From: an uncultured Actinomycetes bacterium | Lineage (GTDB): Bacteria; Actinomycetota; UBA4738; HRBIN12 | Assembly: GCA_963797635.1 (NCBI GenBank) | Contig: CAWCPZ010000011.1 | Location: 563,248 to 627,247 of the forward strand | Direction of reading: 5' to 3' | Length of the DNA: 64,000 bases | Shown: positions 1-64,000 of the stretch, piece by piece | Layout of the letters: every line of letters begins with the position of its first letter | Position numbering within the stretch: position 1 is the stretch's first letter | Notes under the pieces: generated by a model | Database searches by the model: none | What the model saw: the letters and a program-made list of their open reading frames with translations, nothing else | What the model was told of the DNA's origin: nothing | Made by a program: the position numbers and the translations under genes

Positions 1-593
1 GGCAGCGTCCACGAATCGCTGGGCGCGAACATCCGATCCTGCAGCGTGTAGCGCTTGGCGTACTTCCAGTAGTTCGGGATCTCCCGCGCCGTGTGGAAGC
101 CCATGACGTCGGGCTGGCCGGCCGGCCCGTTCCTCGCCTTCCTGCACGGGTAGTAGTCACGGTTCTCGGGCTTGGAGCAGCCGTTGCCGATCTGGCGCAG
201 CGAACGTACGAACCCGTCCATCTTGCCGCCGTCGATCGAGATCCTCGAGCCCTGTTCGCCGTGCGGTCCGCCCTGATCGAACTGGTTCAGGTCGTGGTAG
301 GGCCTGCGGCACGGACCCTTCGGATCGGGCACACACGGCTTGAAGCGACCGTTGGGGAACCGAGGGATGCCGTTGGCACCGGGGAACGTCCCGAAGTAGT
401 GATCGAACGAGCGGTTCTCCTGCACGATGAACACGAAGTGGTCGATGTTCTCGATGCCGGCCGCCGGGTCGATGCCTCTCGGAGGCGTCGCGGAGGCGGT
501 GGCCTCGACCGACGACGGCACGGCGGCGGCGATGATGCCCAGGACGATGAGCGGCAGCAGGATGCGGAGGGCGCGGGTCATGGAATCGCGCAT
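1..593 (-). CDS. Secreted phosphoesterase family protein (phospholipase C / acid phosphatase type), 5' part only; the 3' end lies beyond the window start
   Basis: Own minus-strand translation from ATG 593 (second in-frame ATG at 581): MRDSMTRALRILLPLIVLGIIAAAVPSSVEA (signal peptide), then [26 protein letters not shown], the phosphoesterase signature. Clear paralog of ORF 656..2041. GGGAG lies 8 nt upstream of ATG 593. Not in the ORF track because no stop falls inside the window. Confidence 0.8.
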   Translation of the reverse strand, partial: MRDSMTRALRILLPLIVLGIIAAAVPSSVEATASATPPRGIDPAAGIENIDHFVFIVQENRSFDHYFGTFPGANGIPRFPNGRFKPCVPDPKGPCRRPYHDLNQFDQGGPHGEQGSRISIDGGKMDGFVRSLRQIGNGCSKPENRDYYPCRKARNGPAGQPDVMGFHTAREIPNYWKYAKRYTLQDRMFAPSDSWTL

Positions 594-616
594 GCTACCC
601 GCTCCCCCGGCCCGCT

Positions 617-637
617 CAGGGAGCCGCTCGCTCCCTG
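617..637 (-). terminator. Intergenic hairpin (8-bp stem CAGGGAGC/GCTCCCTG, 5-nt loop) between the two phosphoesterase paralogs
   Basis: Inverted repeat read directly from the sequence. It lies between the stop of the upstream paralog (656) and the start of the downstream one (593). No U-tract, so terminator function is only inferred. Confidence 0.3.
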
Positions 638-655
638 ACACAGGATCGCCATCGG

Positions 656-2129
656 TCAGCCCGGTTCTGGATCCAGCACGAGGGGCGGCAGCGGTTCCTG
701 CTCGAAGTCGAAGATGTCGCGCAGGTCACCGAGGCCGGGCACCTCCTCGCGCACGGTGGGCCGCGAGTCCGGCCATCCCCAGTTCTCGCCGTCGAGCCGT
801 CGCCCGTCGATGAACCGGTCCTCGATCAGCTTCAAGAACGAATCGAACGAATATCGCTGGTGGTCCACGTCCAGGTCGCTGTCGACCCATGGACTGATCA
901 CGATGCCGGGGACACGGATGCCGTAGCCGAACTCGTCCACCCTCGGCGGCAGCACGTGGTCGTAGAAGCCGCCCCAGTCGTCCCACGTGAGGAAGATCGC
1001 CGTGCGTTCCCACTGCTCGGGCGGTCCCTGCATGATCGAGTTGACGACGCGTGTGACCCACGCCTGGCCGGTGGCGATGTTCCCCAGTTCGTCGCCCGGG
1101 TGCTCGCTCCGGCCGGCCGTGGGCACCACCCAGGACACGGACGGGAGGTCGCCGGTCTTGATCGAGTTGAAGAAGTCCGCATACGGCGCCACGTTGCCCA
1201 ACTGTCCGCTCTGTCGCACCGTCTGGAACCCGGGCAGCGGATTGAAGATCGGGTTCGTGGAGCGAGCGTTCCGCTGGGGCTTGCACGGGTTGTCGACGCA
1301 GCTGTCCGGGCCCACGTAGTAGCCCCAGCTCACGCCCGCCTTGCCCAGCATCCACGTGATGTCGCCCCACGCGTACGGCATCTTCGCGCCCTGCTTCAGC
1401 GGCCACCACTGATCGGGCTTGCGGACCTGGGTGTTGCAGCTCATCGGGTCGTTCAGATCGGGGCAGCGCGCCGTCCAGCCCGACACCAGCGCCAGGTGCG
1501 AGGGAAGCGTCCAGGAGTCGGTGGGCGCGAACATGTGGTCCTGGAGCAGGTAGTGACGCGCGTACGCCCAGTAGTTCGGGATCTCCTTGGCGGTGTGGTA
1601 GCCCATCACGTCGGGCGTGCCGTCGGGGCCGGGGTGCGTGAGCGGGCAGGGGGACTTCGTCGGGTCGTGCAGGCACGAGTTCCCGATCGACTCGAGCGCC
1701 TGGATGTACCCGTCCATGCGCCCGCCGTTCACATCGATCAGGGATGCGTGGGAGTTGTGCGGTCCTCCGGCGTCGTACAGGTTCGTGTCGTGGTACGGCG
1801 TCCGGCACACGCCACCGGCGAACGGATCGGGCACGCACACGTCGAAGGAACCGTCATCGTTGCGCGGGATGCCGTCGGCCCCCGGGAAGGTGCCGAAGTA
1901 GTGGTCGAAGGACCGGTTCTCCTGCACCACGAACACCAGGTGGTCGATGTTGCCGAAGCCCAGCGACGGGTCGATCGTCGAACCCTGCGTGGCCGACGGC
2001 GTGGTGGGCGTGGAGGCGGCGACCGACCCCGTGGGCTGCACGGTCGGGTCGTCGGCTGGAACAGGTCGCGGCGGTCGCGGCGAACGCCAGGGCGAGCGCG
2101 ACCACGACGAACACGCCCCGGGATCTCAT
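656..2129 (-). pseudogene. Phosphoesterase family protein (phospholipase C / acid phosphatase type); signal peptide out of frame with the catalytic part
   Basis: ORF 656..2041 (461 aa) contains [24 protein letters not shown]. The signal peptide [22 protein letters not shown] starts at ATG 2129 but in the frame of ORF 1854..2174. The two frames join if one nt is skipped around 2045-2075. Alternative reading: GTG start at 2041, giving a protein with no signal peptide. Confidence 0.8.
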
Positions 2130-2298: not shown

Positions 2299-3762
2299 AT
2301 GAGCGACAGCAGTCACCGAGCAGCACGGATCCCGGTCACCCTGATCCCGGGCGACGGCATCGGTCCGGAGTGCGTGACCGCGGCATGCCGGATCATCGAG
2401 GCCACCGGCGCACCCATCGACTGGGAAGACGCCGAGGCCGGTGCCGAGGTCTTCAAGAAGGGCATCGCCTCCGGCGTGCCGCAGGAGACGATGGACTCGA
2501 TCACGCGCACGCGCGTTGCGCTCAAGGGACCGTTGGAGACCCCCGTCGGGTTCGGGGAGAAGAGCGCCAACGTGACGCTCCGCAAGCTCTTCGAGACCTA
2601 CGCGAACGTCCGACCGGTGCGTGAGATGCCCGGCGTCACGACCCCGTATTCGGGCCGGGGCATCGACCTGGTGATGGTCCGGGAGAACGTCGAGGACCTG
2701 TATGCCGGCATCGAATACATGCAGACCCCGGGGGTCGCGCAGGCGCTGAAGCTGATCAGCGTGAAGGGCTCGGAGAAGATCGCTCGGTTCGCGTTCGAGT
2801 ACGCGCGCAGCGAGGGTCGCAGCAGCGTCGCGTGCGCCACGAAGGCCAACATCATGAAGTTCTCCGAAGGCACGCTGAAGCGCGTGTTCGAGTCGGTGGC
2901 GCCCGACTACCCCGAGATCGAATCGTGGCACGTGATCGTGGACAACGCCGCCCACCAGCTGGTGAAGAAGCCCGAGCAGTACGAGGTGATCGTCACCACG
3001 AACATGAACGGCGACATCCTGTCCGACCTCTCGAGCGCATTGATCGGCGGACTGGGATTCGCGCCGAGCGCCAACATCGGCAACGAGGTGGCGATCTTCG
3101 AAGCGGTGCACGGGTCGGCGCCCAAGTACGCGGGCAAGAACGTGATCAACCCCACCGCCGTGATCCTGTCGAGCGTGCTGATGCTGCGTTCCCTCGGCCT
3201 GTTCGAAGAAGCGAGCGCGATCGAGCACGCGGTCTTCGTGACGCTGGAATCGGGCACGCTGACCGGTGACGTGGTGGGCTACGACGCCGGTGTCTCCACC
3301 ACCGACTACACCGACGCCATCATCGGGAACCTCGGCAACAAGACCGACCGATGGACGATCCGCGAGGTCCGGCCGCTGAAGCTCCCGGAGCTCTCGCCCG
3401 ACCCCGACTACGTGAAGGTGAGCTCACGCGCGGTCGTGGGCCTGGATGTGTTCGTGGAGTCCCCGATGTCGGCCGAGGAGCTGGGCGCCTCGCTCACCGA
3501 GCTCGCCACCGGCACGCGGCTGGAGCTGAAGATGATCTCGAGCCGCGGCACGAAGGTGTACCCGCCGACCGGCACGATCACCGACACGCTGGACCACTGG
3601 CGGTGCCGGTTCATCATCCGCGAGGACCCGGGCGACCTCTGGGACGAGGACGTGCACCAGTTGCTGGCTCGCATCAGCCGCCGTCACACCTGGATGCACA
3701 CCGAGAAGCTGCAGGAGTTCGACGGGGAGCTCGGGTTCACCCGCGACCAGGGCGAGAACTAG
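2299..3762 (+). CDS. Isocitrate/isopropylmalate dehydrogenase family protein, NAD-dependent isocitrate dehydrogenase-like, with a C-terminal extension of about 137 aa
   Basis: In-frame ATG 2299 within ORF 1744..3762, preceded by AAGGAG (2282-2287). Sequence IPVTLIPGDGIGPE...SANVTLRKLFETYANVRP...NMNGDILSDL...HGSAPKYAGKNVINP is typical of the Iso_dh fold. The 185 aa upstream in the track ORF are R/P-rich and look spurious. Confidence 0.85.
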   Translation: MSDSSHRAARIPVTLIPGDGIGPECVTAACRIIEATGAPIDWEDAEAGAEVFKKGIASGVPQETMDSITRTRVALKGPLETPVGFGEKSANVTLRKLFETYANVRPVREMPGVTTPYSGRGIDLVMVRENVEDLYAGIEYMQTPGVAQALKLISVKGSEKIARFAFEYARSEGRSSVACATKANIMKFSEGTLKRVFESVAPDYPEIESWHVIVDNAAHQLVKKPEQYEVIVTTNMNGDILSDLSSALIGGLGFAPSANIGNEVAIFEAVHGSAPKYAGKNVINPTAVILSSVLMLRSLGLFEEASAIEHAVFVTLESGTLTGDVVGYDAGVSTTDYTDAIIGNLGNKTDRWTIREVRPLKLPELSPDPDYVKVSSRAVVGLDVFVESPMSAEELGASLTELATGTRLELKMISSRGTKVYPPTGTITDTLDHWRCRFIIREDPGDLWDEDVHQLLARISRRHTWMHTEKLQEFDGELGFTRDQGEN

Positions 3763-4248
3763 TGCCCTCGGCATCGCCGCCGGTCGTCACCCTCCGGCCG
3801 ATGACGGAGGCGGAATACGAGGCGTACGTCCCCCACGCCACCGAGACGTACGCGGTCGACCTGGCGCGGAACAACCTGGTGAGCGAGGAGGAGGGCTGGG
3901 CGCGGTCGCGACGCTCCTTCGACACGGAGCTGCCGGACGGGATCCACACCCCCGACCAGCGGCTCCTCATCGCGGAGGATGCCGAAGGGCGACTGGTCGG
4001 CTACCTCTGGCTCGCGCGGAAGCCCGAGACCGACACCGTTGTTCATCTACGACATCGAGGTGGTCGCCGAACGCCGAGGTGAAGGCTTCGGGCGGAGCCT
4101 GATGGAGCACGTGGAGGTCGAGGGCCGTGCGATGGGTCTGGGCCGGATCGAGCTCAACGTCCACGCCGACAACGAGGTGGCGCGTTCGCTGTACGAGTCC
4201 GCGGGCTATCGCGAGATGCGACGCCAGATGGTCAAGCTGCTCGACTGA
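3762..4248 (+). pseudogene. GNAT-family N-acetyltransferase, frame break near 4038-4042
   Basis: GTG 3762 overlaps the preceding TAG (TAGTG). The N-terminal part (VVTLRPMTEAEYEAYV...GYLWLARKPETDT) is in the frame of ORF 3351..4082. The C-terminal part (FIYDIEVVAERRGEGFGRSLMEH...NEVARSLYESAGY, the acetyl-CoA binding motif) is in ORF 3979..4248. Skipping one nt restores DTVFIYDIEV. Confidence 0.75.
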
Positions 4249-4519: not shown

Positions 4520-4575
4520 GCGCAGGATACGGTCTTGTGTTCCCACACGATAGCGATTAAGCTAACCCGAAAGCG

Positions 4576-5581
4576 ATGGCCATCTCGATCCTGCTCTCGG
4601 GCGAAGACCTGGCGGAGACGCGGTTCGCGTTCTCCCCCATCTGGGAACTCGGCATGAGCTTGTACAAGCCCATGCGCGACCCGGCGAAGCACGCGCTGCA
4701 CCTCCCGTGGGTCCAGGAAGCCCGCAAGGCCATCGAGGGCCACGACCTTTCCCTCTTGTTCGCGGTGGTGCCGCCGGAAGGGATCGGGCCGAACGTGCAT
4801 CCCTACATCCCCGACTTCCTCACCCCGCCGCCGGAGACGCCGTTCCCCGAGTTCGAGGACGAGCTCGAGCACGTGGGTCGCACCGACCCCGATCAGGTGC
4901 GTCGCGAGCTGGAGCACATGATCGGATCGCTCCAGGGCGCGTCGGTCGGCGCCCTCACGATGGACATCCTCGAAGACCCGGCTCCGTTCCTGCCCAGGCT
5001 GGTCGAGCAGATGCGCGAGTACTGGAAGCTGGCGATCGAGCCGCACTGGCCGCGCATCCGCCAGCTCCACGAAGCCGACGTCACCTACCGGGCGCGACAG
5101 TTGGCGCTGGGCGGCGCCGAGCTGCTCTTCGCCGACCTGCACCCCATGCTGGAATGGCAGGACGGCTCCCTGGTCCTGAACAAGCAGTTCTGCGAAAGCG
5201 TCGATCCGGCGGGGCGCGGCCTGATCCTGATCCCCGCGCGTGTTCGACTGGCCCGGCGTCGCGGTCCTGATCGAAGGCGACCAGCCCGTCCTGTCCTACT
5301 CCCCCCGCGGCATCGCCACGCTGTGGGACGATGCGCCGCCCCAGCGCACGGGCGCGATGGACGAGCTGATCGGCGGCACGCGCGCGGACCTGCTGCGCGT
5401 GCTGGAGGTGCCCATGACCACCGGCGAACTGGCGCGGCGGCTGCATCTGACGCCGGCCGCGATCTCCCAGCAACTCGGGCTGCTCCGGCGGGCGGGCGTG
5501 GTGGACGCGAGGCGCCAGGGGCGTGAGGTCTACACCGAGCTGACACCGGAAGGTCGCAAGCTGCTCGACCTGCTCGGTTGA
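4576..5581 (+). pseudogene. ArsR-family transcriptional regulator with a long N-terminal (DUF5937-like) domain, frame break near 5235-5241
   Basis: The N-terminal 220 aa are in ORF 4576..5526. The C-terminal winged-helix part (GGTRADLLRVLEVPMTTGELARRLHLTPAAISQQLGLLRRAGVVDARRQGREVYTEL) is in ORF 5240..5581. Skipping one nt joins ...GRGLILIPA to VFDWPGVAVLIEG. Confidence 0.75.
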
Positions 5582-5617: not shown

Positions 5618-5693
5618 GGTCCCATCGTCTAGAGGCCTAGGACATCACCCTCTCAAGGTGAAGACACGGGTTCAAATCCCGTTGGGACTACCA
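5618..5693 (+). tRNA. tRNA-Glu (anticodon CUC), CCA encoded
   Basis: Hand-folded cloverleaf of 76 nt. Acceptor stem GGTCCCA/TGGGACT (G1-U72 wobble), D stem GTCT/GGAC, anticodon stem TCACC/GGTGA, loop CTCTCAA (U33, anticodon CTC, A37), T arm ACGGG-TTCAAAT-CCCGT, discriminator A plus CCA. Confidence 0.9.
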
Positions 5694-5796: not shown

Positions 5797-6360
5797 TCAT
5801 GGCTCTATCCGCTTGACGACCTCGGCTCCGCCATCGGTCACTCGAACCCGTAAGTACCCCGTCCCGTCGGCGACGGTCCCAGCTTCGAGCCGCGCATGGG
5901 TGCTTCCGGAGCGCCTGGCGGTCCACGTGAGTTCCCCGGTCGTGCAGAACTGCGTCTCCTGGTGATCGTCGGTCAGGCGGGCCGCGGAGACGAGGAGGGA
6001 ACCCGATGCATGCCGGAAGCCGATCGCTCCATCCATCGCGAAGTACATGAAGTCAAAGTCCTCCTCGAACGCGAACTCTCCACCCTCGTCAAGCCTCATG
6101 CCCGCCCCCATGAAGAAGTCGGTCGTCCAGGCTTCGGTGGTGGCGTCCTCGCACGTGAGCGTGAAGTCGATAGAGATCGCCCTGAGGAATCGACGCCCAT
6201 CGTCCTTCTTCAAGACATCGATCGTGACGTGCCTCCACGTTGGAGCAGCAGAGGTCTTGCCGTCGAAATGGATGAGCCGGGCAGCGGAGGCTGGGACGGC
6301 CAGGGTCACGGCGAGCGCGAGCGCGACGGTAATTGAGACCGCGGTGCGGGTCATTCGCAT
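5797..6360 (-). CDS. Secreted hypothetical protein (187 aa), paralog of 6369..6914
   Basis: Internal ATG 6360 of the fused track ORF 5797..6942, with AGGAG 7 nt upstream. Signal peptide MRMTRTAVSITVALALAVTLAVPASA. Motifs shared with the neighbour: KKDDGRRFL, LTCEDATT, DGAIGFRHASG, CTTGELTWT. Confidence 0.7.
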   Translation of the reverse strand: MRMTRTAVSITVALALAVTLAVPASAARLIHFDGKTSAAPTWRHVTIDVLKKDDGRRFLRAISIDFTLTCEDATTEAWTTDFFMGAGMRLDEGGEFAFEEDFDFMYFAMDGAIGFRHASGSLLVSAARLTDDHQETQFCTTGELTWTARRSGSTHARLEAGTVADGTGYLRVRVTDGGAEVVKRIEP

Positions 6361-6368
6361 TGTCACTC

Positions 6369-6914
6369 CTAGTGTCCGTGTACGACGCGGAGCTTCAAGT
6401 AGCTCCCGCCCCCTGGGACACCCATAGACGACGGCTCGGCCTGAGTGTGAGGGATTCGCTCGACCGTCCAGGTCAACTCTCCGGTCGTACATAGTTGGGT
6501 ATCGGTCCCGTCGGCGGTGACCTCGGCGGTACTCAGAAGGTAGGTTCCGCTCCCGTGTCGGAAACCGATCGTCCCATCGACACGCACATACGTTGCTGAA
6601 TCCTCGAACTCGTCGCTGTCGTCGATCACCCGGGAGAACGACCCGTCTTCGCCCAAGCGACCGATGCCGATGATGACGCTGGACTTGAACGTGGTGGCGT
6701 CTTCGCACGTGAGGACTGACCGGACAGCGATGAATTGGAGGAATCGGCGACCGCTGTCCTTCTTCAACACGTACGCGATCACGCGGTTGTAGGAGGGAGC
6801 CGAGGTTTCCCCTCGGTACTCGATGAGCTGTGCCGCGGAAGCAGGCAACGCCAAGACCAGCGAGAGGAGAATTGCGACAGATAGCGCCAGGACGGTCCGG
6901 GTCAAAGTTCGCAT
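6369..6914 (-). CDS. Secreted hypothetical protein (181 aa), paralog of 5797..6360
   Basis: ORF 6369..6914, with GAGGAGGA upstream of the ATG. Signal peptide MRTLTRTVLALSVAILLSLVLALPASA. Shares KKDSGRRFL, LTCEDATT, DGTIGFRHGSG and CTTGELTWT with the downstream gene. Confidence 0.7.
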   Translation of the reverse strand: MRTLTRTVLALSVAILLSLVLALPASAAQLIEYRGETSAPSYNRVIAYVLKKDSGRRFLQFIAVRSVLTCEDATTFKSSVIIGIGRLGEDGSFSRVIDDSDEFEDSATYVRVDGTIGFRHGSGTYLLSTAEVTADGTDTQLCTTGELTWTVERIPHTQAEPSSMGVPGGGSYLKLRVVHGH

Positions 6915-7396
6915 GATCCTCCTCGGTTGCGTGGGCAGGCACCGAGCATCTTGGGGCCGTCAGACTCGTGGGTCAACGAAGAGCCTGATTTGCGGCGAGC
7001 AGGCCGACCCTCGACAACGCGACGACGATTCACGAAACTGCTGAAGCATGGCGGTCTCGCCGGGTTCGGTCTCGATCGCGGGCACGGTCAGCGGCTCTTC
7101 TTGTACCCCGTGGTCTTGGTGGCCCTGCTTCGGGCGGCGACATCCACCTTGGAGGGGAACTGCTGTTTCGACTGGAAGAGCTGCTTCAGCCACCGGACGA
7201 ACCTCATGATCTACCTACCTCCGCTCCGCAGAACTGATCACTCTTCAAGGTCATGTTAGGTCGCAAGTCCATCTCCTGATCCCGTTTGACCCCGGTCTCC
7301 TCGCTTACTCCTGCGGCTGTAAGGACAGCCCGCCGTGCCCTCGTAGAAGGTCGCATACGACGTTCGATCGCAGTTCGATCGATACGACGAACCTGC

Positions 7397-12643: not shown

Positions 12644-12682
12644 ACTACGCTTCGTTCCCGAACCATCTTCGAAGGGTTGGCG

Positions 12683-18820: not shown

Positions 18821-18841
18821 CGTGCGGGCTCCTTCCGGTAC

Positions 18842-24147: not shown

Positions 24148-24160
24148 CCCGACGCCCCCC

Positions 24161-49547: not shown

Positions 49548-49689
49548 CGGTTGGATCACTCCTCGAACGACGTCGGAACCGTCAGCCTACCAATGCGTCG
49601 ACGGCAGGATTCCGCAAGGACGGCGACGGCAAGGAACCGCAGCTCCGTATCATCCTGTGGGCGCTTCGCCAGGGGCGCCGACCCCAACG

Positions 49690-52713: not shown

Positions 52714-53576
52714 CCATGGTGAGTCCCGACGTGTTCACCCCGGCGGATCGCGATGCCCTGATCCGGTTCCGGCACGTCTACAAGGTGTACCGGGTGGCCG
52801 ACACCGGCGTCGTGGCGCTCGGCGGCGTCGACTTCGACATCGCCCAGGGCGAGTTCCTGGCGGTGGTGGGGCCGAGCGGCGCGGGCAAGTCCACGATCTT
52901 GAACATGGTGGGCGGCCTCGACCGCGCGTCCGCCGGCGAGGTGATCGTCGACGGCCAGGACCTGGGCCAGCTCGACGACGACGCGCTCACGCAGTACCGG
53001 GGCGAACGCATCGGGTTCGTGTGGCAGGGCACCGCGCGCAACCTGGTGCCGTACCTCAACGTGCGTGAGAACGTGCGGCTCCCCGGCACCGTGCATCGCA
53101 GCGCCGAGCGCTCACGTCAGCGCGACGTCGAGGAGCTGCTGGCCCTGGTCGGGCTGAAGGACCGATCCAAGCACCGGCCGGGCATGCTGTCGGGCGGTGA
53201 ACAGCAGCGTGTCGCGATCGCCGTGGCACTGGCCAACACGCCCACGATCCTGTTGGCCGACGAACCCACGGCCGAGCTCGACTCCGAGAGTTCGGCCCGG
53301 GTGCTGGAGGCCTTCCGCGCGGTGAACCAGGAGTTCGGCACGACGATCGTGATGGTGACCCACGACCTGGCTGCGGCGCGGGCGGCCTCGCGGCGGATCC
53401 GCGTCCGGGACGGGCGGGTGCTGCACGAAGGCCTGGCGGTCGATCCGATCGGCGAGGACGGCCGCGTCAAGCTCCCCGACGACGCGATCGCCGCGCTGGG
53501 CGGGGTCGAGCTCGAGGCCGAGGTCGGGCCCGACGAGATCCATCTGCGGCGAAGGAGCGAGACCGGCCATGCCTGA
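52710..53576 (+). CDS. ABC transporter ATP-binding protein with a C-terminal extension of about 60 aa
   Basis: ORF 52710..53576 (288 aa). Walker A GPSGAGKST, signature LSGGEQQRV, Walker B ILLADEPT. Start overlaps the permease stop. Confidence 0.9.
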   Translation: MTMVSPDVFTPADRDALIRFRHVYKVYRVADTGVVALGGVDFDIAQGEFLAVVGPSGAGKSTILNMVGGLDRASAGEVIVDGQDLGQLDDDALTQYRGERIGFVWQGTARNLVPYLNVRENVRLPGTVHRSAERSRQRDVEELLALVGLKDRSKHRPGMLSGGEQQRVAIAVALANTPTILLADEPTAELDSESSARVLEAFRAVNQEFGTTIVMVTHDLAAARAASRRIRVRDGRVLHEGLAVDPIGEDGRVKLPDDAIAALGGVELEAEVGPDEIHLRRRSETGHA

Positions 53577-53714
53577 TCGCGACGACCTGCGGAACGTCTG
53601 GGGTCCCGGAGCCCAGCGGGGCGACGAGGACGGCGGGGCGCCGCGACGCCGGCCCCGGGTGCCGCGGAGCCTGCACGGCCGGCCGGCGGTGCCCCACTCC
53701 TGGAGGGCATCAAC

Positions 53715-54398
53715 GTGGTTCGCTCCTATCCGGGCGCCCAGGGGGTGCTCGCGGTACGCGGCGCGTCGCTGTCGCTGGCCTCGCAGGACTTCGTGGCGCT
53801 GATGGGGCCGAGCGGTTCGGGCAAGACCACGTTCATCGGCACGCTGTCCGGACTCGATGCCCCCGACGAGGGCGAGGTGCGGTTCAAGGGCGAACCGATC
53901 ACGGCGATGTCCCGCGCCGAGCGGATCGCGCTGCGCCAGACCGGCATGGGCGTCGTGTTCCAGTCGTTCGGGCTGCTCCCCACGCTGTCGGCCGTGGAGA
54001 ACGTGGAACTGCCCCTGCGGGTGAACGGTGTCGACCTGGGCGAGGCGCGGGAACGCGCGATCGGCTGGCTCGAGCGTCTGGGCCTCACCGACCGGGTCGA
54101 CAATCGGACGTTCGAGCTGAGCGCGGGCCAGCAGCAGCGCGTGGCGGTGGCGCGGGCGCTGATCGCCGAACCCGAGGTCGTGCTCGCCGACGAACCGATC
54201 GCCGAGGTCGACACCGAGAACGCCGACCTGATCCTGGAGGCGCTCTGGGACGTGATCGGGCGCGGCGGGGCCGTGCTGGCCGCCACCCACAACCCGGAGG
54301 CGCTGCGCTACGCGAACCGGGTGGTGCTGTTCCGCGACGGTCAGATCGAAGCCTCGGGCTCCCCCGAGGAGCTCGCCGGCCACCTCACCACCGACTAG
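53715..54398 (+). CDS. Second ABC transporter ATP-binding protein; 5' end unresolved (probably extends upstream towards 53569)
   Basis: ORF 53715..54398. Walker A GPSGSGKTT, signature LSAGQQQRV, Walker B VLADEPI. The conserved N-terminal strand (PLLEGINVVRSYPG) continues upstream of GTG 53715 in the same frame, but that frame has no start codon. ATG 53569 is in another frame. Confidence 0.8.
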   Translation: MVRSYPGAQGVLAVRGASLSLASQDFVALMGPSGSGKTTFIGTLSGLDAPDEGEVRFKGEPITAMSRAERIALRQTGMGVVFQSFGLLPTLSAVENVELPLRVNGVDLGEARERAIGWLERLGLTDRVDNRTFELSAGQQQRVAVARALIAEPEVVLADEPIAEVDTENADLILEALWDVIGRGGAVLAATHNPEALRYANRVVLFRDGQIEASGSPEELAGHLTTD

Positions 54399-54412
54399 TC
54401 TGACCCAGACTA
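54396..54412. terminator. Palindrome TAGTCTG-ACC-CAGACTA, second copy of the element at 25099..25117; the stop codon is again in the stem
   Basis: TAG 54396-54398 ends the ABC ATPase gene. A convergent small ORF ends at 54422. The extended 19-nt sequence matches the reverse complement of the first copy at 17 of 19 positions. Confidence 0.4.
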
Positions 54413-54421
54413 CCCGCGCGG

Positions 54422-54574
54422 CTAGAAGCGCAGGGACTTCCAGACGTCGTCTCCGCGGTCGGTGAACGCGTCGGGGTCCAGGTCGACCGGCAGCGGTTGG
54501 TCGCCGGGCTCGCGGCCCAGCACGCGATCCACCAACCTTCGCCGGCCCTGGCCCTTGCGGAGGGCCTTGGCCAT
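54422..54574 (-). CDS. Possible small protein (50 aa), below the ORF-track length cut-off
   Basis: Own translation: MAKALRKGQGRRRLVDRVLGREPGDQPLPVDLDPDAFTDRGDDVWKSLRF-stop. The frame stays open for 15 more codons upstream (DLDLQRRIRETRRDR) without a standard start. No family recognised. Confidence 0.3.
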   Translation of the reverse strand: MAKALRKGQGRRRLVDRVLGREPGDQPLPVDLDPDAFTDRGDDVWKSLRF

Positions 54575-54657
54575 CCGATCGCGCCGCGTCTCACGGATGC
54601 GGCGTTGCAGATCGAGGTCTCAGGTGGGATGGCCCAGCGCCGGCCCCGAGATGTGCA

Positions 54658-55882
54658 TCAGGGCACCAGCGTCCGCAGGTCGACGTCGGGATCCTCCAGC
54701 GCGGTCGGGTCGGGGGCCACCTGGGCGGCGATCAACCCGAACGACCGGCGGACGTCCCGCGGCCAATCCAGGCTGACCGTCGACCGCAGCACGCCGTCGC
54801 CGTCGAGCAGGAACGCGCAGAACGAACGCTCCTCCAGGGACCCCCGCACGACCATCCAATCCCACGTGGGGGCGATCCCCGCGGTCTGCACCTGGGACTC
54901 GTACTGGTCCGACCAGAACCAATGGGGATCGCCGAACACGGTCTCGGCCCCGAGCATGTTCCGAGCGGCGGTTTCGCCCATCTTGATCGCGTTGTCGTAG
55001 TGCTCGACGCGGATGGGACCGAAGAGCGGATGCTCCTGCCTCGCCACATCGCCCGCCGCATAGACCCCACGCACCTCGGTCTCGAGCGTCGGCCCGACCG
55101 GGATGCCACCACCCTGGTCCAGGCCCGGTTCCGGCCATGAGCTCCACCGCGGGCTCGGTGCCCACCCCGACGATGGCGACATCGGCATCGATGCGACGAC
55201 CGCCGCTGGTCACCACCGCTTCGAGCCGGCCGTCGCCTTCGAAGCTGGCCACTGCCTCGTTGAACAGCATCTTCACCCCGTGATCGCGATGCACCGCCTC
55301 CAGGACCCGGCCGATGGCGGGTCCCAGGATCCGATACAGGGTGGTCTCGAAGATCTCCACGACCGTTACGTCGTTGCCGAGCATCCGGAGCGAGGCCGCG
55401 ACCTCGGCGCCGATGAAGCCCATGCCGACGCACACCACCCGCGCGCCCTGACCGACGGCCTCCTTGATGCGATCGGCATCGTCGGCGTGGCGGAGATCGA
55501 ACACGCCGGGGAGCCCGGCGCCCGGCGCATCGAGGCTCCGGTTGCGGCTTCCGGTGGCCATCAGCAGCCGGTCGAAGGCGATGCGCTCGCCGCCGGCGAG
55601 CACCACCTCGCGTTCGCGCACGTCGATCTGGACGGCGCGCGTGCCGAACCTGGCGTCGATCTCCTGCTCGGCGTACCACTCGGGCGGTCGCACGAAGGCG
55701 TCCTCGAGCGGCTGCTCGCCGCGCAGGTACTCCTTCGACAGGGGTGGACGTTCGTAGGGCGCCAGCGGTTCGGCGCCGATCAGGGCGATCCGGCCGTCGA
55801 ACCCCTCGCCGCGCAGGGTCGCCGCCGCGGTGGCCCCGGCCAGCGAGGCTCCGACGATGACGAACGTCCGGTCGGTGGTCAC
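54658..55882 (-). pseudogene. FAD-dependent pyridine-nucleotide-disulfide oxidoreductase (ferredoxin reductase type), frame break near 55122-55132
   Basis: ORF 54620..55882 gives MTTDRTFVIVGASLAGATAAATLR...VVCVGMGFIGAEVAASL (two dinucleotide folds). The C-terminal half (GLDQGGGIPVGPTLETEVRGVYAAGDVA...HWFWSDQY) is in ORF 54658..55188. Confidence 0.8.
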
Positions 55883-56264: not shown

Positions 56265-57552
56265 TCAGTATCCGGGCGTCTCCTCGCCCGAGCGACGTTC
56301 CCTGGCCCGCAACCGCGCGCGGTACCAGGACCCGATCGCCAGCAGGGCGTAGAACGCCGCCAGGATCAAGATCCCCTGCCGGAAATCGATCGGCAGGAGC
56401 GCCGGGATGAAGGCCCCGGCCACCCACGCCAGTTGGAACAGCACCTCGTAGCGCACGAACACCCGCCCCTGCGCCCCCGCGGGGGCGTGGCGCTGCATCA
56501 GGCTCTGGAACGCGAGCCGCCCGAACTCGGTGGCCGCGCCAGCCACGAACGCGTAGATCGTGAGCAACGGCAATCCGAAGATCTCGAACGCGAGCAGGGC
56601 GCCGATGCACGCGGCGCTCACGCACGCGATCACCACCGCTTCCTCCCGCGTGGTGGTGGGCACCCTCGGCGCCACCACGTCGGCGACGAACGTGCCCACG
56701 ATGCCCCCCGCCGCCAGCACCGCGAACCAGTACGCCGGCGCGCCGCCTTCCCGCAGCGAGAACGCCAGCAGGAAGAGCAGGAACCCGCTCGCCGCGCGCA
56801 GGCCGACGGCGCCGACCGCGGGCGCGGCCGAGATCCGGGATGCGCCCACGCGGCCCCACCGTGTCGGGCGCCTGGCCGGTGCGAGCCGGGTGGGGCAGCC
56901 GCAGGTTCAACAGGGCGGATCCGGCGTAGACGACGGCGGCCAGATAGATCGGACCCGCCGACCCCCACACCTTCAGGAACACGAACGCGATGGGCGCGGC
57001 GATCACGGCGCCGATCGCGGCCAGGCGCCCCAGCCGGGCGTTCGCCCGCATCAGGCCTTCCTCGTGCGGGGCGTAGGCCATCGTGAGGCCGTTCTTCGTG
57101 ATCGCGTGCACCTTCGACAGCACCAGCAGGATCAACGCGCTCGGGAACAACAGGATCGAACCGAACCGTGGCGCGGCATAGATCGCGACGGCGGCGCGCC
57201 CGGCGGCCGCCCCGAACGAGATCGCGCGCCGCGGACCGGCCTTGTCCAACATCGGGACCAGCAGCGGGCCGGCCAACGCCAGCGGCAGCATCGTGAGGGC
57301 GAGGTAGGCGGCGACCTTGAGCTTCGCCTCGCCCACCGGCAGCGAGAAGAACACCGAGTCGGCCAGGGCCACCGCCAGCATCGCATCGCCCATCACCGAG
57401 GTGAAGTGGCACAACGCGTAGGTGTCGAGCGGATCGGTGGAGCGCCACATCCGCTGGAAGGGATGGATCGCGCCGCGGACCATGCTCGACGCGCCGTACA
57501 GCACCAGCTGCCAGAAGGGCACCCGCTGCGGACGCTCCGGTGGGGTGTGCAC
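56265..57552 (-). pseudogene. MFS-type transporter, frame break near 56850-56858
   Basis: The N-terminal half is in ORF 56254..57552 (hydrophobic up to ...LNLRLPHPARTGQAPDTVG). The C-terminal half (VGASRISAAPAVGAVGLRAASGFLLFLLAFSL...) is in ORF 56265..56849. Confidence 0.7.
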
Positions 57553-57565
57553 CGGTTCCGCGTTC

Positions 57566-59020
57566 CTACCCGGAGAGCCGTTCGAGCAGGAGCTCCTTCG
57601 CGAGCTTCGGGTTGGCCGAGCCCGCCGACTTCTTCATGACCTGGCCCACCAGGAACCCGAGCACGGCCTCCTTGCCCCCGCGGAACTGTTCGACGACCTC
57701 GGGGTTCTCGGCCAGGACCTCGTCGGCGATCGCCCCGAGCGCGCCGCTGTCGGAGACCTGGGTGAGACCCTTGCGCTCGACGATCTCGGCGATGGGATCG
57801 CCGGTGGCCACCGCCTCCTCGAGGGCCTGCTTCGCGCCTGCTCCACTGACCGTGTCGTCGGCGACCAGGGCGATCAGGTCGGCGATGTGCTGCGCCGTGA
57901 CCGGCGAGGCGGCGGGATCGACACCGAGCTTGTTGAGCGAACCCGCCAGGTCCTGGGTGATCCAGTTCGCCGCCGCCTTGGGATCGGCCCCCAGGGCCAC
58001 GGTCTCGTCGAACAAGGCCGACGACGCGCGGTCCCCGACCAGCACGCGAGCCACGTCGGGCTTGAGCCCGTCGTCGGTCTCGTAGCGGGCACGGCGGGCT
58101 CGCGGCAGTTCGGGCAGGCCCGCTCGGATCTCGGCGATCCACTCCTCGCTGGGCTCCAGCGCCGGGATGTCGGGTTCGGGGAAGTAGCGATAGTCGAACG
58201 CTTCCTCCTTCGAACGCATCGACTTCGTGGAGCCCGAGTCCTCGTCCCAGTGACGCGTCTCCTGCGCGATCGCCTCGCCGGCCTCGAGCGCCTTGGTCTG
58301 CCGCTCGATCTCGAAATGGAGCGCGCGCTCCAGGGAGCGGATCGAGTTCATGTTCTTGATCTCGACCTTGGTGCCGAACGCCTCGGTACCGACCGGTCGC
58401 ATCGAGATGTTGGCGTCACAGCGCAGCGAACCTTCCTCCATGCGCACGTCGCTGACGTCGAGCGACTCCAACGTGGCGCGGAGTTCACGGAGGTAGGCGG
58501 CTGCCTCCTCCGGAGAACGGATGTCGGGCTCACTCACGCACTCGACCAGGGGCACGCCCGCGCGGTTGAAGTCGATCAGGGCGGCGTCGGCGTCGTGGAT
58601 GCGGCCCGTGGCGCTCGCGTGCACGGTCTTGCCGGTGTCCTCTTCCATGTGGACGCGCGTGATGCCGATGCGGCTGGTGGTGCCGTCGGGCAGGTCGACG
58701 TCGAGGTGTCCGCCCACGCAGATCGGCAGGTCGTACTGGCTGATCTGGTAGTTCTTCGGCATGTCCGGATAGAAGTAGTTCTTCCGGTGGAACAGCGAGT
58801 GCGGCGCGATCTCGCTGCCGACGGCCAGGCCGATCAGGATGATGCGACGGATCGCTTCGCGGTTGGGCACCGGCAACGAACCCGGGTGACCCAGGCAGAC
58901 CGGGCACACGTTCGTGTTGGGCGCCGCGCCGAACTCGGCGCGGCAGCCGCAGAACATCTTCGTCTGGGTGTTGAGCTCGACGTGGCACTCGAGCCCGATG
59001 ACGGCTTCGACCTCGGTCAT
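57566..59020 (-). CDS. gatB: Asp-tRNA(Asn)/Glu-tRNA(Gln) amidotransferase subunit B
   Basis: ORF 57566..59020 (484 aa). Contains IGLECHVELNTQTKMFCGC, NTNVCPVCLGHPGSLP, NRAGVPLVE and a C-terminal GatB/YqeY domain. Confidence 0.95.
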   Translation of the reverse strand: MTEVEAVIGLECHVELNTQTKMFCGCRAEFGAAPNTNVCPVCLGHPGSLPVPNREAIRRIILIGLAVGSEIAPHSLFHRKNYFYPDMPKNYQISQYDLPICVGGHLDVDLPDGTTSRIGITRVHMEEDTGKTVHASATGRIHDADAALIDFNRAGVPLVECVSEPDIRSPEEAAAYLRELRATLESLDVSDVRMEEGSLRCDANISMRPVGTEAFGTKVEIKNMNSIRSLERALHFEIERQTKALEAGEAIAQETRHWDEDSGSTKSMRSKEEAFDYRYFPEPDIPALEPSEEWIAEIRAGLPELPRARRARYETDDGLKPDVARVLVGDRASSALFDETVALGADPKAAANWITQDLAGSLNKLGVDPAASPVTAQHIADLIALVADDTVSGAGAKQALEEAVATGDPIAEIVERKGLTQVSDSGALGAIADEVLAENPEVVEQFRGGKEAVLGFLVGQVMKKSAGSANPKLAKELLLERLSG

Positions 59021-61592: not shown

Positions 61593-62936
61593 GTCCAGGC
61601 CGCACGGCACGCTGATCGCGGGCACGCCCGCCAGGTTCGCCGGGATCGTGAAGATGTCGTTCAGGTACATCGCCATGGGGTCGTCCACCTTCGCCCCGAT
61701 CGGGAACGCGGTGGTGGGCGAGGTGGGCGAGACCAGCACGTCGAAGTCGGCGAACGCGGCTTCGTAATCGCGGATGATCAGCGTGCGCACCTTCTGTGCC
61801 TGGCCGTAGTACGCGTCGTAGTAGCCGGCGCTCAACGCATACGTGCCGAGCATGATGCGGCGCTTCACCTCGGGGCCGAACCCGGCGCCGCGCGTGCGGA
61901 ACATCATCTCGATCGAGTCGTCGCCGTCCACGCGCAGGCCGTATCGCACCCCGTCGTAGCGGGCCAGGTTCGATGAGGCCTCGCTCGGCGCGATCAGGTA
62001 GTAGGCGCTCAGCGCGTAGCCGGCATGCGGAAGGGTCGCCTCCCCCACCTGCGCGCCGAGGTCGGCGAGCCGATCGACCGCCGCCCGCACCGAGGCGGCG
62101 ACGTCGGGCTCGACACCTTCGCCGAACGCGTCGGCGAGCACGCCGATCCGCAGCCCTTCCACGCCCCGGCCGAGCTGCTCGTGGTAGTCGGGCACCTCGA
62201 CGTCGAGGCTGGTCGCGTCGCGATGGTCCTTGCCGGCGAGGACGCCGAGCAGGGTGGCGGCGTCGGGCACGCTCCGCGTGAACGTGCCCACCGTGTCCAG
62301 CGACGAGGCGAACGCCACCAACCCGTAGCGGCTGATCAACCCGTAGGTGGGCTTGAGCCCCACGACGCCGGTGAGCGACGCCGGCTGGCGCACCGAGCCG
62401 CCGGTGTCGGTGCCCAGGGCCCATACCGCGGCGCCCGCGGCCACCGCGGCCGCGCTCCCGCCGCTCGAACCGCCCGGCACGGTGTCCAGGTTCCATGGGT
62501 TGTGCACGACCCCGTAGGCGGAGTTCTCGGTGGACGAGCCCATCGCGAACTCGTCGCAGTTGGTCTTGCCCACCAGCACGCTGCCGGCGCCCGACAGCCG
62601 CGTCCACGCGGTGCAGTCATAGGGCGGGACGTAGGTCTCCAGGATCTTCGACGCGCACGTCGTTCGGATGCCCTTCGTGGTGAGCACGTCTTTGAGCGCG
62701 GTGGGGATGCCGGCCACGCCCGATTGCGGCGCGCCGGTGGCGAGGTAGGTGTCGAGTTCGGCCGCGCGTTCGCGCGCCACCTCGGTGGTCACCGACAGGA
62801 ACGCACCGAGTTGGTCGTTGACGGCTTCGAGCCGGGCCAGGCTGGAATCGGTGAGCTCCACCGCGGTGATCTCGCCGGCGCGGAGCTGGGCCGAGAGCTC
62901 GGTCCCGGTGCGATCGCAGAGTTCGAGCTCGCTCAC
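61461..62936 (-). CDS. gatA: Glu-tRNA(Gln)/Asp-tRNA(Asn) amidotransferase subunit A
   Basis: ORF 61461..62936 (491 aa). Amidase signature [14 protein letters not shown] and [10 protein letters not shown]. Confidence 0.95.
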
Positions 62937-63226
62937 GAGCCGGTCTCCGCGATCTTCGGCACCATGAACCGGCCGTCGGCCTGCGCCGGGGCGTTGGCCA
63001 GTGCCGCGTCGTGCGGGATCGACGGCTCGGGCGTGTCCTCGCGGAAGACGTTCGCGCGAGGGATCGCCGAGGCGGTGGGCGGCACGTCGTCGGCCGCCAC
63101 CTCGCCCACAGCGGCGGCGTGCTCGAGGATGACCCCGAGCTGCGCGCGCAACTCGGTCTTCTCCTCCTCGGTCAGATCCAGCCGGGCGAGCCGTGCGACG
63201 TGGTCGATGTCGATCTCTATCGCCAT
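62933..63226 (-). CDS. gatC: Glu-tRNA(Gln)/Asp-tRNA(Asn) amidotransferase subunit C
   Basis: ORF 62933..63226 (97 aa). [36 protein letters not shown]... Overlaps gatA by 4 nt. Confidence 0.9.
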
Positions 63227-63260
63227 GGCGGGCAGTGTAGCGGCCGACGTTCAGACGAGG

Positions 63261-64000
63261 TCAGGGCAGCGGGGGCAACGGCGGTGGTGGTGGCATCGGG
63301 GGCAGCGCCACCGTGGCGCCGGGCAGGGGCGGGGGCAACGGCGCCGCCCCCGACATCGGCGCGAGCGCGCGCTGCCGGCCGAGGATGTCCCGCAGGATCA
63401 CGACCGCGCAGATGGCGGCAGCGATCTCCACCAGGCGCGCGATCACCGCGACGATGTCGCTCGACGCCACGGTGCTGAGATCGCTCTCCTGCTGCATCGC
63501 GCTCGCCACGATATCCAGGAGGTTCCCCCCGATCCAGCACGCCCACCACAGCCCCAGCACCCACCAGGCCCTGGCACGCCACCAACCCTTGGGATCGTCG
63601 GTGGGTTCGCTGGCTTTCCAGAGCTCCGACATCGCACCCAAGGGCTTCCAGAGGCTCGCGAACGGGATGAACCACCAGCCCACGGCCCATCCGGGTGTGT
63701 AGCTCAGGCCGATGCGCCCGAACGACCGGAGGTTGCTGTGGGCCCGGTGCTGCCAGATGCACCACAGCACCGCGGTGACGAGCAGCGCGATCAACGTCCA
63801 GCCACCGATCGCCTCGACGCGGTTGTCGCTCGCGACCGCTTCCTCGATCGACACCGGACGTCCGGCGAGCGAATCGAGCACCAGCGAACGCTCGATCAAC
63901 AGCGACACCACACCGAGGATGTCGATCACGGCCGTCACCGCCAGCATGGCCACCACCCAGTACGTGAGGACCCCGAGCGGTTTGCCGCGCGCCGGTGTCT
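63261..64000 (-). CDS. DUF4328-like membrane protein with a proline-rich C-terminal tail; the 5' end probably lies beyond the window
   Basis: ORF 63261..63956. The frame stays open to position 64000 (..PARGKPLGVLTYW upstream of the listed start). Contains SYTPGWAVGWWFIPFASLWKPLGAMSELWKAS (W-rich DUF4328-type block). The tail is PLPPPLPGATVALPPMPPPPPLPPLP. Confidence 0.6.
   Translation of the reverse strand, partial: TPARGKPLGVLTYWVVAMLAVTAVIDILGVVSLLIERSLVLDSLAGRPVSIEEAVASDNRVEAIGGWTLIALLVTAVLWCIWQHRAHSNLRSFGRIGLSYTPGWAVGWWFIPFASLWKPLGAMSELWKASEPTDDPKGWWRARAWWVLGLWWACWIGGNLLDIVASAMQQESDLSTVASSDIVAVIARLVEIAAAICAVVILRDILGRQRALAPMSGAAPLPPPLPGATVALPPMPPPPPLPPLP

Follow-up and report, generated by a model that had tools for sequence, protein, structure and literature searches.

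The window analysed here, a stretch of 64,000 nucleotides, carries genes for transporters, regulators and metabolic enzymes, and in 25 of its genes the reading frame is interrupted by a total of 45 single-base breaks (Table 1), 42 of which are of insertion type versus 3 of deletion type (binomial sum ~4e-10). The presence of these breaks in the sequence is confirmed, the same frame steps being recovered by a reference-free segmentation based on codon usage (Viterbi). Relatives with 92-98% DNA identity pinned 35 of the extra bases to the nucleotide, while six further insertions (~22150, ~22447, ~24521, ~24735, ~25048 and ~56835) were placed from the frame change, 14-32 more distant orthologues and Pfam domains that run across the junction. 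Deletion of 32 single bases and restoration of one returned 17 genes to a single stop-free frame, and across the junctions the repaired proteins are matched by single Pfam models.

These results largely bear out a first-pass annotation of the same DNA, which had reported about 40 one-base breaks in about 25 genes, reparable by removal of one base and free of in-frame stops; the breaks lie where it had placed them, to within about 20 bases, and MmpL, PepN, FtsX, the GS-like gene, GltX, GatB and GatA, which it had named as clean, are unbroken. The purely insertional spectrum that had been claimed holds as a bias but not as a strict rule, given the three deletion-type events, of which that at 27161 is the clearest. 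Two items were corrected: a break placed at 25205 consists of two one-base deletions and an insertion in the MarR gene, and a deletion suspected at 53569-53715 is the spacer separating two ABC ATPase genes, with no break. The +1 frame steps at 8171, 41332, 42233, 55893 and 57572 are ordinary gene boundaries and no breaks.

Table 1. Frame breaks in the window, with the genes affected and the comparison with relatives (L numbers) and orthologues.
Position	Strand	Event	Gene	Observations
2054	-	extra G	PF04185 phosphoesterase, 656-2125, near N-terminus (signal peptide)	not in L091; frame step at 2057; Pfam match limited to mature part
4039	+	extra T	GNAT acetyltransferase, 3760-4248	not in L091 (gene intact, 160 aa); Acetyltransf_1 domain crosses junction
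5239	+	extra C	DUF5937/ArsR-HTH regulator, 4573-5578	not in L091 (gene intact, 334 aa); DUF5937 domain crosses junction
12251	-	extra G	acetoacetate-decarboxylase family, 11848-12661	not in L035, L091; +1 vs 18 orthologues; ADC domain unbroken once repaired
14345	+	extra A	GH76 glycosidase-like, 13888-14886	not in L035; Glyco_hydro_76 domain crosses junction; repair reopens frame
17680	-	extra T	MetE-like (Meth_synt_2), 17161-18325	not in L035; 29 orthologues fit +1 mod 3; Pfam domain unbroken
18375	-	extra C	165-aa protein without Pfam family, 18325-18841, near C-terminus	not in L035; repair reopens frame
19101	-	extra C in CCC run	RidA/L-PSP, 18845-19253	not in L035; Ribonuc_L-PSP domain unbroken
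19604	-	extra G	cytochrome P450, 19296-20520	common to Nanopore MAG contig L035; not in L001 and >60 other orthologues
22130-22175	+	first +1 break, base not pinned	short-chain dehydrogenase, 21966-22772	32 orthologue alignments, mostly +1; adh_short_C2 domain unbroken over both junctions; gene missing from L035 and L001
22437-22465	+	second +1 break	same dehydrogenase	+1 vs 32/32 orthologues
22986	+	extra G	second cytochrome P450, 22923-24147, near N-terminus	not in L035, L001; +1 vs 38 orthologues
24489-24523	+	first +1 break	luciferase-like monooxygenase, 24161-25105	interval set by stop codons; frame step at 24521; +1 vs 14 orthologues; Bac_luciferase domain unbroken
24720-24750	+	second +1 break	same monooxygenase	+1 vs 17/17 orthologues; Pfam domain unbroken
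25035-25072	+	third +1 break	same monooxygenase, near C-terminus	+1 vs 4/5 orthologues; frame step at 25048
25147-25214	-	one extra (25147), two missing bases (25200, 25212-14)	MarR regulator, 25151-25664, C-terminus	three-frame comparison with L001, L035; base missing at 25200 is G in L035, T in L001
25865	-	extra G in GGG run	PLP-dependent decarboxylase, 25649-27100	not in L035, L001; +1 vs 57 orthologues
26391	-	extra C	same decarboxylase	not in L035, L001; +1 vs 56/56 orthologues
26896	-	extra C	same decarboxylase	not in L035, L001, L089, L093-L096; +1 vs 47/47 orthologues
27161	-	missing base	amino-acid permease, 27104-28600	T in all 8 relatives (L035, L001, L089, L092-L096); neighbour base G/T polymorphic among relatives
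27196-27204	-	two extra bases: C or G at 27196/7, A at 27204	same permease	27196/7: ACGAGC in 4 relatives, ACCAGC in 3, window ACCGAGC (both alleles); relatives vary (G/C) at the base preceding extra A
27257-27277	-	two extra bases: A at 27257, G or C at 27275-77	same permease	not in 7 relatives; both adjoin sites polymorphic among relatives
27338-27339	-	extra base	same permease	window GACGAGC, relatives GACAGC, GAGAGC (tandem alleles)
27480	-	extra C	same permease	not in any of 7 relatives
27738	-	extra G	same permease	7/7 relatives without it; substitution 2 bases off
27839-27840	-	extra base	same permease	window GTCGAGC, relatives GTCAGC (5), GTGAGC (2) (tandem alleles)
27954	-	extra C in CCC run	same permease	7/7 relatives without it
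28309-28310	-	extra base	same permease	window CCCGACG, relatives CCGACG, CCCACG, CCTACG (tandem alleles at three-allele site); +1 vs 38/38 orthologues
30835-30840	-	extra base	aldehyde dehydrogenase, 29592-31131	three different alleles in relatives, with window CGGCGGG as their superstring; +1 vs 22 orthologues
31539-31540	+	extra base	DUF2330, 31214-32270	window CACGCCC, relatives CACCCC, CAGCCC; same frame shift in L089; one additional codon in L001; domain unbroken once repaired
35564-35567	+	extra C in CCCC run	470-aa protein without Pfam family, 35308-36733	not in L089, L090; substitution adjoins
36464-36465	+	extra base	same 470-aa gene	L089 GCCGCGCGG, L090 GCCCCGGGG, window GCCGCCGCGG; scored both-allele at half-width 2 bases
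36631	+	extra G	same 470-aa gene	not in L089, L090
38410	-	extra G	SAM methyltransferase, 38214-39003	common to L089; not in L090, L082
38737-38740	-	extra base	same methyltransferase	window GAACGGTGGG unites the bases of L089 GAAGGTGGG and L090 GAACGGGGG; Methyltransf_11 domain crosses junction
43608	-	extra T	amine-oxidase-family flavoprotein, 43409-45012	not in L089, L090, L082
45902-45906	-	extra base	MFS_3 transporter, 45377-46589	not in L081, L087, L089, L082, all mutually different; window has L089-like left and L081/L087-like right part
47045-47048	-	extra base	phosphoglycerate dehydrogenase, 46811-48400	common to L089; L081, L082 CGCGGGCG, L087 CGCCGGCG, window and L089 CGCCGGGCG (both alleles)
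48481-48482	-	extra base	class-V aminotransferase, 48389-49559, ~25 codons upstream of stop	L081 CCAGCG, L087 CCAACG, window CCAAGCG (both alleles)
55124-55127	-	extra C in CCC run	ferredoxin reductase, 54661-55882	not in L085, L082; Pyr_redox_2 domain crosses junction
56830-56886	-	net +1 break, base not pinned	MFS_1 transporter, 56334-57571	frame step at 56835; MFS_1 domain crosses junction; sole covering relative L082, 77% identical

The amino-acid permease gene, for which at least eight breaks had been claimed, holds 11 events (10 insertions and 1 deletion), and it is a recurrent hot spot: here the independent contig L092 has some 17 extra bases that are private to it.

The view that the extra bases are genuine mutations of the organism, as in pseudogene decay, is not supported. 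The 35 pinned bases are missing from every covering relative at 92-98% DNA identity, including independently assembled relatives of ~96% identity, JGI contigs and one NCBI MAG, with the exception of five sites (including the noncoding 28664), each of which is common to one other assembly, mostly another long-read contig. Once repaired, the broken genes show dN/dS values of 0.02-0.15, as low as those of unbroken genes (0.04-0.06 for the permease with its 11 events), and not one stop interrupts the reopened frames. For the first P450 gene (19296-20520), dN/dS between the window and L035 is 0.125, indicating that no gene decay followed an ancestral break. Furthermore, the density of +1-type breaks is 17.5 per 100 kb over 40 loci from Microflora Danica Nanopore MAGs versus 2.4 in 48 others, taken as short-read from their contig names only; similar insertion-biased breaks lie at other positions in other Nanopore-only MAG contigs of the clade, and several Microflora Danica MAGs are one-sided like the window (insertion:deletion 11:0, 10:1 and 13:3), which ties the pattern to sequencing technology. 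These MAGs were obtained from Nanopore reads only, with Flye --meta assembly and one round of Medaka polishing (PMC12313526), and in soil assemblies frameshift errors have been found to be commoner with Nanopore than with HiFi (PMC13087279). Every read-free test run thus agreed with the initial preference for insertion-biased consensus error over pseudogene decay. The frame breaks are almost certainly absent from the organism itself and bear on data quality rather than biology.

Random read errors are not supported either. At 8 of the 26 sites covered by at least two relatives, a SNP among these relatives falls exactly where the base is added, with its two alleles standing one after the other in the window, as compared to 3.0% of simulated insertions (P = 7e-7); in the densest region, with seven relatives, this applies to 6 of 13 sites against a null of 6% (P = 5e-5), and 10 of the 13 have a polymorphic site no more than 2 bases away. 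The three deletion-type events are also located where relatives disagree. Moreover, 26 of 32 extra bases represent a synonymous alternative of the adjacent third-position base (null 45%, P = 3e-5; context-matched null 54%, P = 7e-4). Three further long-read contigs have 25 private extra bases, of which 22 are of this kind. Runs of at least three identical bases hold only 6 of the 32 in the window. Since most extra bases thus match the alternative allele at a synonymous SNP, strain collapse is indicated rather than random read error, which supports and refines the interpretation of the first-pass annotation.

Accordingly, we consider it likely that a consensus built over collapsed, co-occurring strains has turned SNPs into one-base insertions. 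The platform behind the window is most likely a long-read metagenome assembly, namely Nanopore with a Flye/Medaka-type pipeline, and Flye has been shown to collapse strains that are ~98.7% identical into one consensus (PMC8302730). The reads that the assembler merged into one contig would have come from a single soil actinobacterial species, present as several strains living together, so that the reads of the window would include both alleles. What distinguishes these strains at a given site would be a SNP or a short variant of several bases, most often C versus G at a synonymous third codon position. If the two alleles missed a common pileup column and were shifted against each other, giving one insertion and one deletion, the consensus would retain both side by side, for a net +1, or in rare cases lose both, for a net -1. 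Each such site would break the reading frame of the assembly although no cell would have the extra base. In read alignment, a mismatch normally costs less than an insertion plus a deletion, and the offset step is therefore conjecture; a literature search found no paper on exactly such a conversion of SNPs into insertions by strain collapse. Context-specific basecalling error would also fit two observations: some motifs around the extra base are seen repeatedly (five instances of C[G]AG in the window, and AT[G]C in contigs other than the window), and five extra bases, one of them noncoding, are shared with another assembly. For about half of the extra bases, no second allele occurs among the relatives sampled so far.

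Under strain collapse, the more variation the sampled population harbours in a gene, the more breaks that gene would have, and nearly invariant genes would have none. Bins of 500 bases that contain extra bases diverge from the nearest relative by 4.2%, compared to 2.4% for the others (P = 0.003), and dS to the nearest relative is 0.03-0.04 in clean genes, MmpL and PepN among them, versus 0.08-0.29 in broken ones. The breaks therefore track local sequence diversity, which partly explains their uneven spread over the window.

It had been claimed by the first-pass annotation, from the sequence alone, that about 40 one-base frame breaks interrupt about 25 genes and that they reflect insertion-biased consensus error. 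The same frame steps were recovered, with no reference needed, by a six-frame Viterbi segmentation that had been trained on the codon frequencies of the window itself. In the left-to-right direction the frame index goes up by 1 after an inserted base, whichever the strand, but down by 1 at a typical start/stop overlap of 4 bases, so that breaks can be distinguished from gene boundaries. Pairwise alignment with close relatives at 92-98% identity pinned 35 extra bases to the nucleotide. Six further breaks, at about 22150 and 22447 in a short-chain dehydrogenase gene, at about 24521, 24735 and 25048 in a luciferase-like monooxygenase gene and at about 56835 in an MFS transporter gene, lie in genes that are absent from the closest relatives or covered only by distant ones; here 14-32 more distant orthologues give offsets that are nearly all +1 modulo 3 and Pfam domains continue through the junctions, while the bounds set by stop codons are useful only at 24489-24523, being too wide elsewhere. 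Deletion of 32 pinned bases together with restoration of one missing base produces a single uninterrupted frame in each of 17 genes with no in-frame stop. When an extra base at 25147, in the C-terminal part of a MarR gene, is included, 25 genes contain 42 insertion-type against 3 deletion-type events. All of these are single-base events, with no larger indels and no in-frame stops, unlike the mixed lesions of normal decay.

The insertion bias first described is real, but its strictness is not, given that all eight relatives have a base at 27161 which the window lacks, and that the supposed one-base insertion at 25205 resolves into two single-base deletions (25200 and 25212-14) accompanying the insertion at 25147 in the MarR gene. 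A deletion suspected between 53569 and 53715 was rejected, this interval being an intergenic spacer between two ABC ATPase genes that differs by only 2 bases from the JGI contig L085. Further candidates dismissed as breaks include +1 steps at 8171, 41332, 42233, 55893 and 57572 (gene boundaries over-called by the Viterbi segmentation), many -1 steps (4-base start/stop overlaps) and the interval 5797-6942 (two tandem paralogues). The genes listed as clean, namely MmpL, PepN, FtsX, GS-like, GltX, GatB and the amidase-family GatA, are indeed without breaks and were correctly named.

The window, with a G+C content of 69%, belongs to a lineage of soil actinobacteria that is represented solely by metagenome-assembled genomes (MAGs). 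A protein search with one cytochrome P450 of the window returned 80 loci, all but two of them titled as Actinomycetota, Actinomycetes or Actinobacteria MAGs, and about half of them originating from the Microflora Danica (MFD) project. The MFD MAGs are Nanopore-only and were assembled by Flye (--meta --nano-hq) followed by one Medaka round (PMC12313526). Pairwise DNA comparison shows that close relatives cover nearly the entire window, and the LigB protein of the window has an exact match common to 14 contigs.

Database loci of relatives aligned with the window
Locus	Window positions	DNA identity
L091	1-13651	94-98%
L035	12087-35111	96.2%
L001	19226-34604	92-94%
L089	26732-47645	95.8%
L090	35026-44688	92.6%
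L092-L096	26660-31572	96-98%
L081, L087, L085 (JGI contigs)	44926-55866	94-97%
L082	38-63 kb	77%

The evidence from relatives and from selection says that the extra bases are not mutations. Relatives at 92-98% identity, drawn from at least ten independent contigs, lack the 35 pinned bases, with the exception of four coding sites (19604, 31540, 38410 and 47046), each of which recurs in one other long-read contig (L035 or L089) from a different sample and is lacking in the other relatives. A noncoding extra base at 28664 also occurs in another assembly and, as several relatives have it, looks like a natural polymorphism. Intact versions of broken genes exist in relatives at 96-98% identity, for example the amino-acid permease (503 aa), the aldehyde dehydrogenase (512 aa), the GNAT protein (160 aa) and a regulator (334 aa). 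Measured against relatives in the repaired frame, dN/dS is 0.02-0.15 in broken genes, indistinguishable from 0.014-0.09 in unbroken ones, and reaches only 0.04-0.06 in the permease despite its 11 events; codon bias is preserved downstream of every break. For genes with shared breaks, dN/dS between the two carriers is at most 0.13, which excludes an old shared pseudogene. The repaired genes look fully functional, with a single open frame in 17 of them, Pfam domains that span junctions and purifying selection, and the organisms almost certainly carry them unbroken.

These observations bear directly on the view that the extra bases are real, whether through one-directional pseudogenisation or an insertion-biased mutator. 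The bases do stand in the deposited sequence, a few are common to two assemblies, and the genes hit belong mostly to accessory metabolism and transport. Pseudogene-rich reductive genomes, such as those of Mycobacterium leprae and of recent host-restricted symbionts, likewise have many genes interrupted within a short stretch. However, genuine decay leaves a mixture of lesions (deletions and insertions, larger indels, stops) together with relaxed dN/dS, whereas the window has single-base lesions only, no stops and no relaxation of selection, including in the genes whose breaks are shared, and its nearest relatives hold the genes intact. This explanation is very improbable, all the more so as mutation would neither follow sequencing technology nor favour synonymous third-position alternatives nor duplicate both alleles of relatives' SNPs, as the breaks described below do.

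Programmed +1 ribosomal frameshifting, or another form of recoding that reads through the breaks, would account for shifts that all go in the same direction. In systems such as prfB the position of the site is conserved across orthologues and a defined shifty motif is present; the likeness to the window consists of a single-base frame offset inside an otherwise intact coding sequence. The window sites, on the other hand, have no common motif, number up to 11 in one gene and lack conservation even between assemblies that are 96% identical, and in over 60 relatives the orthologues run on unbroken at these positions; recoding has a practically negligible probability. Were the bases nevertheless physically present in a living lineage, as +1 insertions beside synonymous sites in dozens of genes kept under purifying selection, which is an exceedingly remote prospect, some hitherto unknown tolerance or recoding of +1 shifts would be implied.

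The frequency of breaks was found to depend on sequencing and assembly technology rather than on lineage. The same frame-break detector was run on all loci, a crude counter that double-counts some sites and, in every class, scores some gene boundaries as -1 events, and only the contrast between classes is used: 40 MFD Nanopore loci contain 146 +1-type and 75 -1-type breaks in 834 kb, while 48 other loci of the same clade, taken as short-read from their contig names alone, contain 15 and 27 in 620 kb, corresponding to 17.5 versus 2.4 +1-type breaks per 100 kb. By this crude count the one-sidedness (+1:-1) of the window (23:1) has counterparts in other loci, among them L025 (11:0), L062 (10:1), L035 (13:3) and L016 (8:1). 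Furthermore, private extra bases at positions that are unbroken in the window occur in each of L035, L089, L090 and L092, and the permease is a break hot spot both in the window and in the independent contig L092. That copy (L092:1-4900, ERZ25039582 contig_11621, window 27166-28623) has about 17 private one-base insertions, mostly C before G, and about 6 deletions in the permease.

For soil assemblies it has been reported that Nanopore data yield more frameshift errors than HiFi data (PMC13087279). The window resembles the frameshift errors of Nanopore-only assemblies, as seen in IDEEL-type tests for truncated proteins, in that genes found whole in other assemblies are cut by isolated single-base indels, at a rate that depends on technology and sample (PMC13087279, PMC9262707). 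The classical description of such errors is one of indels in homopolymers (PMC9262707), whereas 19 of 32 extra bases in the window have no identical neighbour, only 6 lie in runs of 3-4 and the longest run is 4, bearing out the first-pass remark that the extra bases extend beyond homopolymers. The breaks, which are neither confined to homopolymer runs nor mostly deletions, belong with long-read consensus frameshift errors while being distinct from the homopolymer-bound textbook form.

Strain polymorphism is indicated as the source of these errors by three independent observations, namely tandem alleles, codon phase and local diversity, which together tie the artefacts to polymorphic sites, albeit indirectly and by sequence comparison. 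Firstly, when polymorphism is scored from relatives in other samples rather than from the window's own reads, of 26 sites for which two or more relatives are available, 8 coincide exactly with a SNP of those relatives of which the window holds both alleles, where random insertions in simulation give 3.0% (P = 7e-7). In the densest region, covered by seven relatives, both alleles are found in 6/13 sites against a null of 6% (P = 5e-5), and 10 of the 13 lie within 2 bases of a polymorphic site. For example, at 27196/7 four relatives read ACGAGC and three ACCAGC where the window has ACCGAGC; at 48481/2 the relatives' CCAGCG and CCAACG correspond to CCAAGCG in the window; and at 30835-40 the window sequence is a superstring of three alleles. 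All three deletion-type events likewise fall on sites where relatives disagree, as at 25200, where neither the G of L035 nor the T of L001 is present in the window.

Secondly, 26 of 32 extra bases can be read as a synonymous alternative of the adjoining third-codon-position base, against 45% under random insertion (P = 3e-5), and the private extra bases of L035, L089 and L090 behave similarly (22/25). Read error or mutation has no reason to know codon phase, and such an excess therefore points to standing variation that has been filtered by selection. Thirdly, divergence from the nearest relative is 4.2% in 500-base bins with breaks and 2.4% in those without (P = 0.003), a moderate effect (Spearman rho 0.30 between error density and local diversity), and dS is 0.03-0.04 in the clean MmpL, LigB and PepN genes (against L035) versus 0.08-0.29 in broken genes (against the nearest covering relative). 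As breaks follow local divergence, their very uneven spread, which the earlier annotation had found puzzling, is largely explained. A mosaic test of the relatives' alleles gave alternation where breaks lie and one dominant haplotype in PepN, a picture that an equidistant third lineage would render identically and that is therefore left out of the evidence.

If strain polymorphism played no part, a noisy long-read consensus at low coverage could simply contain random indel errors, which would also belong to the error class typical of long-read assemblies, namely isolated single-base indels. The rate varies greatly between Nanopore MAG loci, as coverage would make it, the six events in short runs lengthen runs of identical bases, and about half of the sites have no second allele in the sampled relatives. 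Such errors should nevertheless ignore both codon phase and the relatives' SNPs, and they would not be expected to track local divergence or to fall so often away from identical bases. Nanopore homopolymer errors are, moreover, deletion-biased, which is the opposite of the 42:3 ratio in the window, and random error is considered unlikely to be the explanation.

Systematic, context-specific basecalling or polishing errors, for instance at modified bases or particular k-mers, would recur wherever their motif occurs. Such recurrence is suggested by the five extra bases present in another assembly (the four coding sites and noncoding 28664), by a C[G]AG context at 12251, 27197, 27339, 27840 and 56830, by an AT[G]C context in L035, L089 and L090, and by the permease being a hot spot in L092 as well. 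The AT[G]C cases, in which ATC becomes ATGC, are private extra bases of L035 (window 26602 and 27184), L089 (42476) and L090 (43554), twice within CGATCG, and could reflect a motif-specific basecalling problem. Yet the excess by codon phase persists when the null is matched for the two flanking bases and their reverse complement (26 observed, 17.1 or 54% expected, P = 7e-4), a motif model does not predict the both-allele pattern, and the window has thousands of further CAG and ATC sites without such an error. The few recurring bases fit equally well with common SNPs that segregate in several soils, and the five shared ones could stem either from repeated collapse at the same common SNPs or from a systematic error tied to context. 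As a full account, context-specific error is judged quite unlikely, although at C[G]AG and AT[G]C it may contribute.

The most likely mechanism is strain collapse with a consensus that turns SNPs into insertions. The assembler would have merged co-occurring strains into a single contig; at SNPs an offset insertion and deletion would then have stood in for a mismatch between the two alleles, leaving a consensus with both bases (+1) or occasionally neither (-1), and both alleles would presumably be present in the reads of this sample. Flye is known to merge strains that are about 98.7% identical into one consensus contig (PMC8302730), and microdiversity is known to affect MAG quality (PMC9262707, PMC12313526). 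The window behaves as such a merged-strain consensus, although the cited papers on strain and haplotype collapse treat fragmentation and chimeric choice of SNP alleles rather than tandem insertion of both alleles. We infer the latter signature from the allele and codon-phase tests, and a literature search found no description of SNP-to-tandem-insertion consensus errors. The initial preference for insertion-biased consensus error over pseudogene decay is thus supported by the intact relatives, the low dN/dS and the link to technology, with strain polymorphism now added as its probable source.

The frame breaks are almost certainly an assembly artefact of low biological interest. No biological follow-up is warranted, but the finding has practical weight for users of long-read (Nanopore) soil MAG catalogues: about 25 of the roughly 60 genes in the window would be mis-called as fragments or pseudogenes, and as other loci of the clade from Nanopore MAGs have the same insertion-biased breaks, any pangenome comparison, pseudogene count or protein catalogue based on such MAGs would be distorted. 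If reads bear out that the extra base is the second allele of a mostly synonymous SNP, errors of this type could be recognized and repaired without a reference, and strain-aware polishing, not more coverage, would be the remedy.

Several variable segments were observed besides the single-base events. The dehydrogenase (21949-22796) and monooxygenase (24138-25133) genes are absent from L035 and L001, whose flanks join directly, and are present in more distant relatives such as L004, L010 and L002, which looks like strain-level variation in gene content; their break density is unusually high, with 2 and 3 breaks, respectively, in less than 1 kb each. Many small indels distinguish the relatives in the intergenic segment 45080-45390 and in the C-terminal part of a GH76-like gene (14370-14600), where they compensate each other, and these look like genuinely hypervariable segments rather than single-base errors. 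Compared with L091, the GNAT gene has a compensating pair (3985-3992) in which a gained base and a lost base lie 7 bases from each other; this may be a genuine variant or two consensus errors. Conservation with L091 is also poor at 5.7-6.3 kb, downstream of a tRNA-Glu(CTC) gene (5618-5693), which is the sole RNA gene found by ARAGORN and Rfam, the Rfam scan of the window returning nothing besides it.

Paralogy is apparent at two places. The beginning of the window (1-2125) falls within tandemly arrayed paralogues of a PF04185 phosphoesterase (phospholipase C-like), of which L091 has four in a row (L091:3575-9831), and two neighbouring SAM methyltransferase paralogues (38214-39770) share about 68% DNA identity, with breaks in the first only. 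Lastly, the palindrome AGTCTG-N3-CAGACT, with TAG/CTA flanks, is present in two copies (25101-25115 and 54397-54411) against a chance expectation of 0.07; both occupy a short spacer that immediately follows a + strand gene, and both adjoin a - strand coding segment, the first is conserved in L001, and the element may be a shared bidirectional terminator hairpin.
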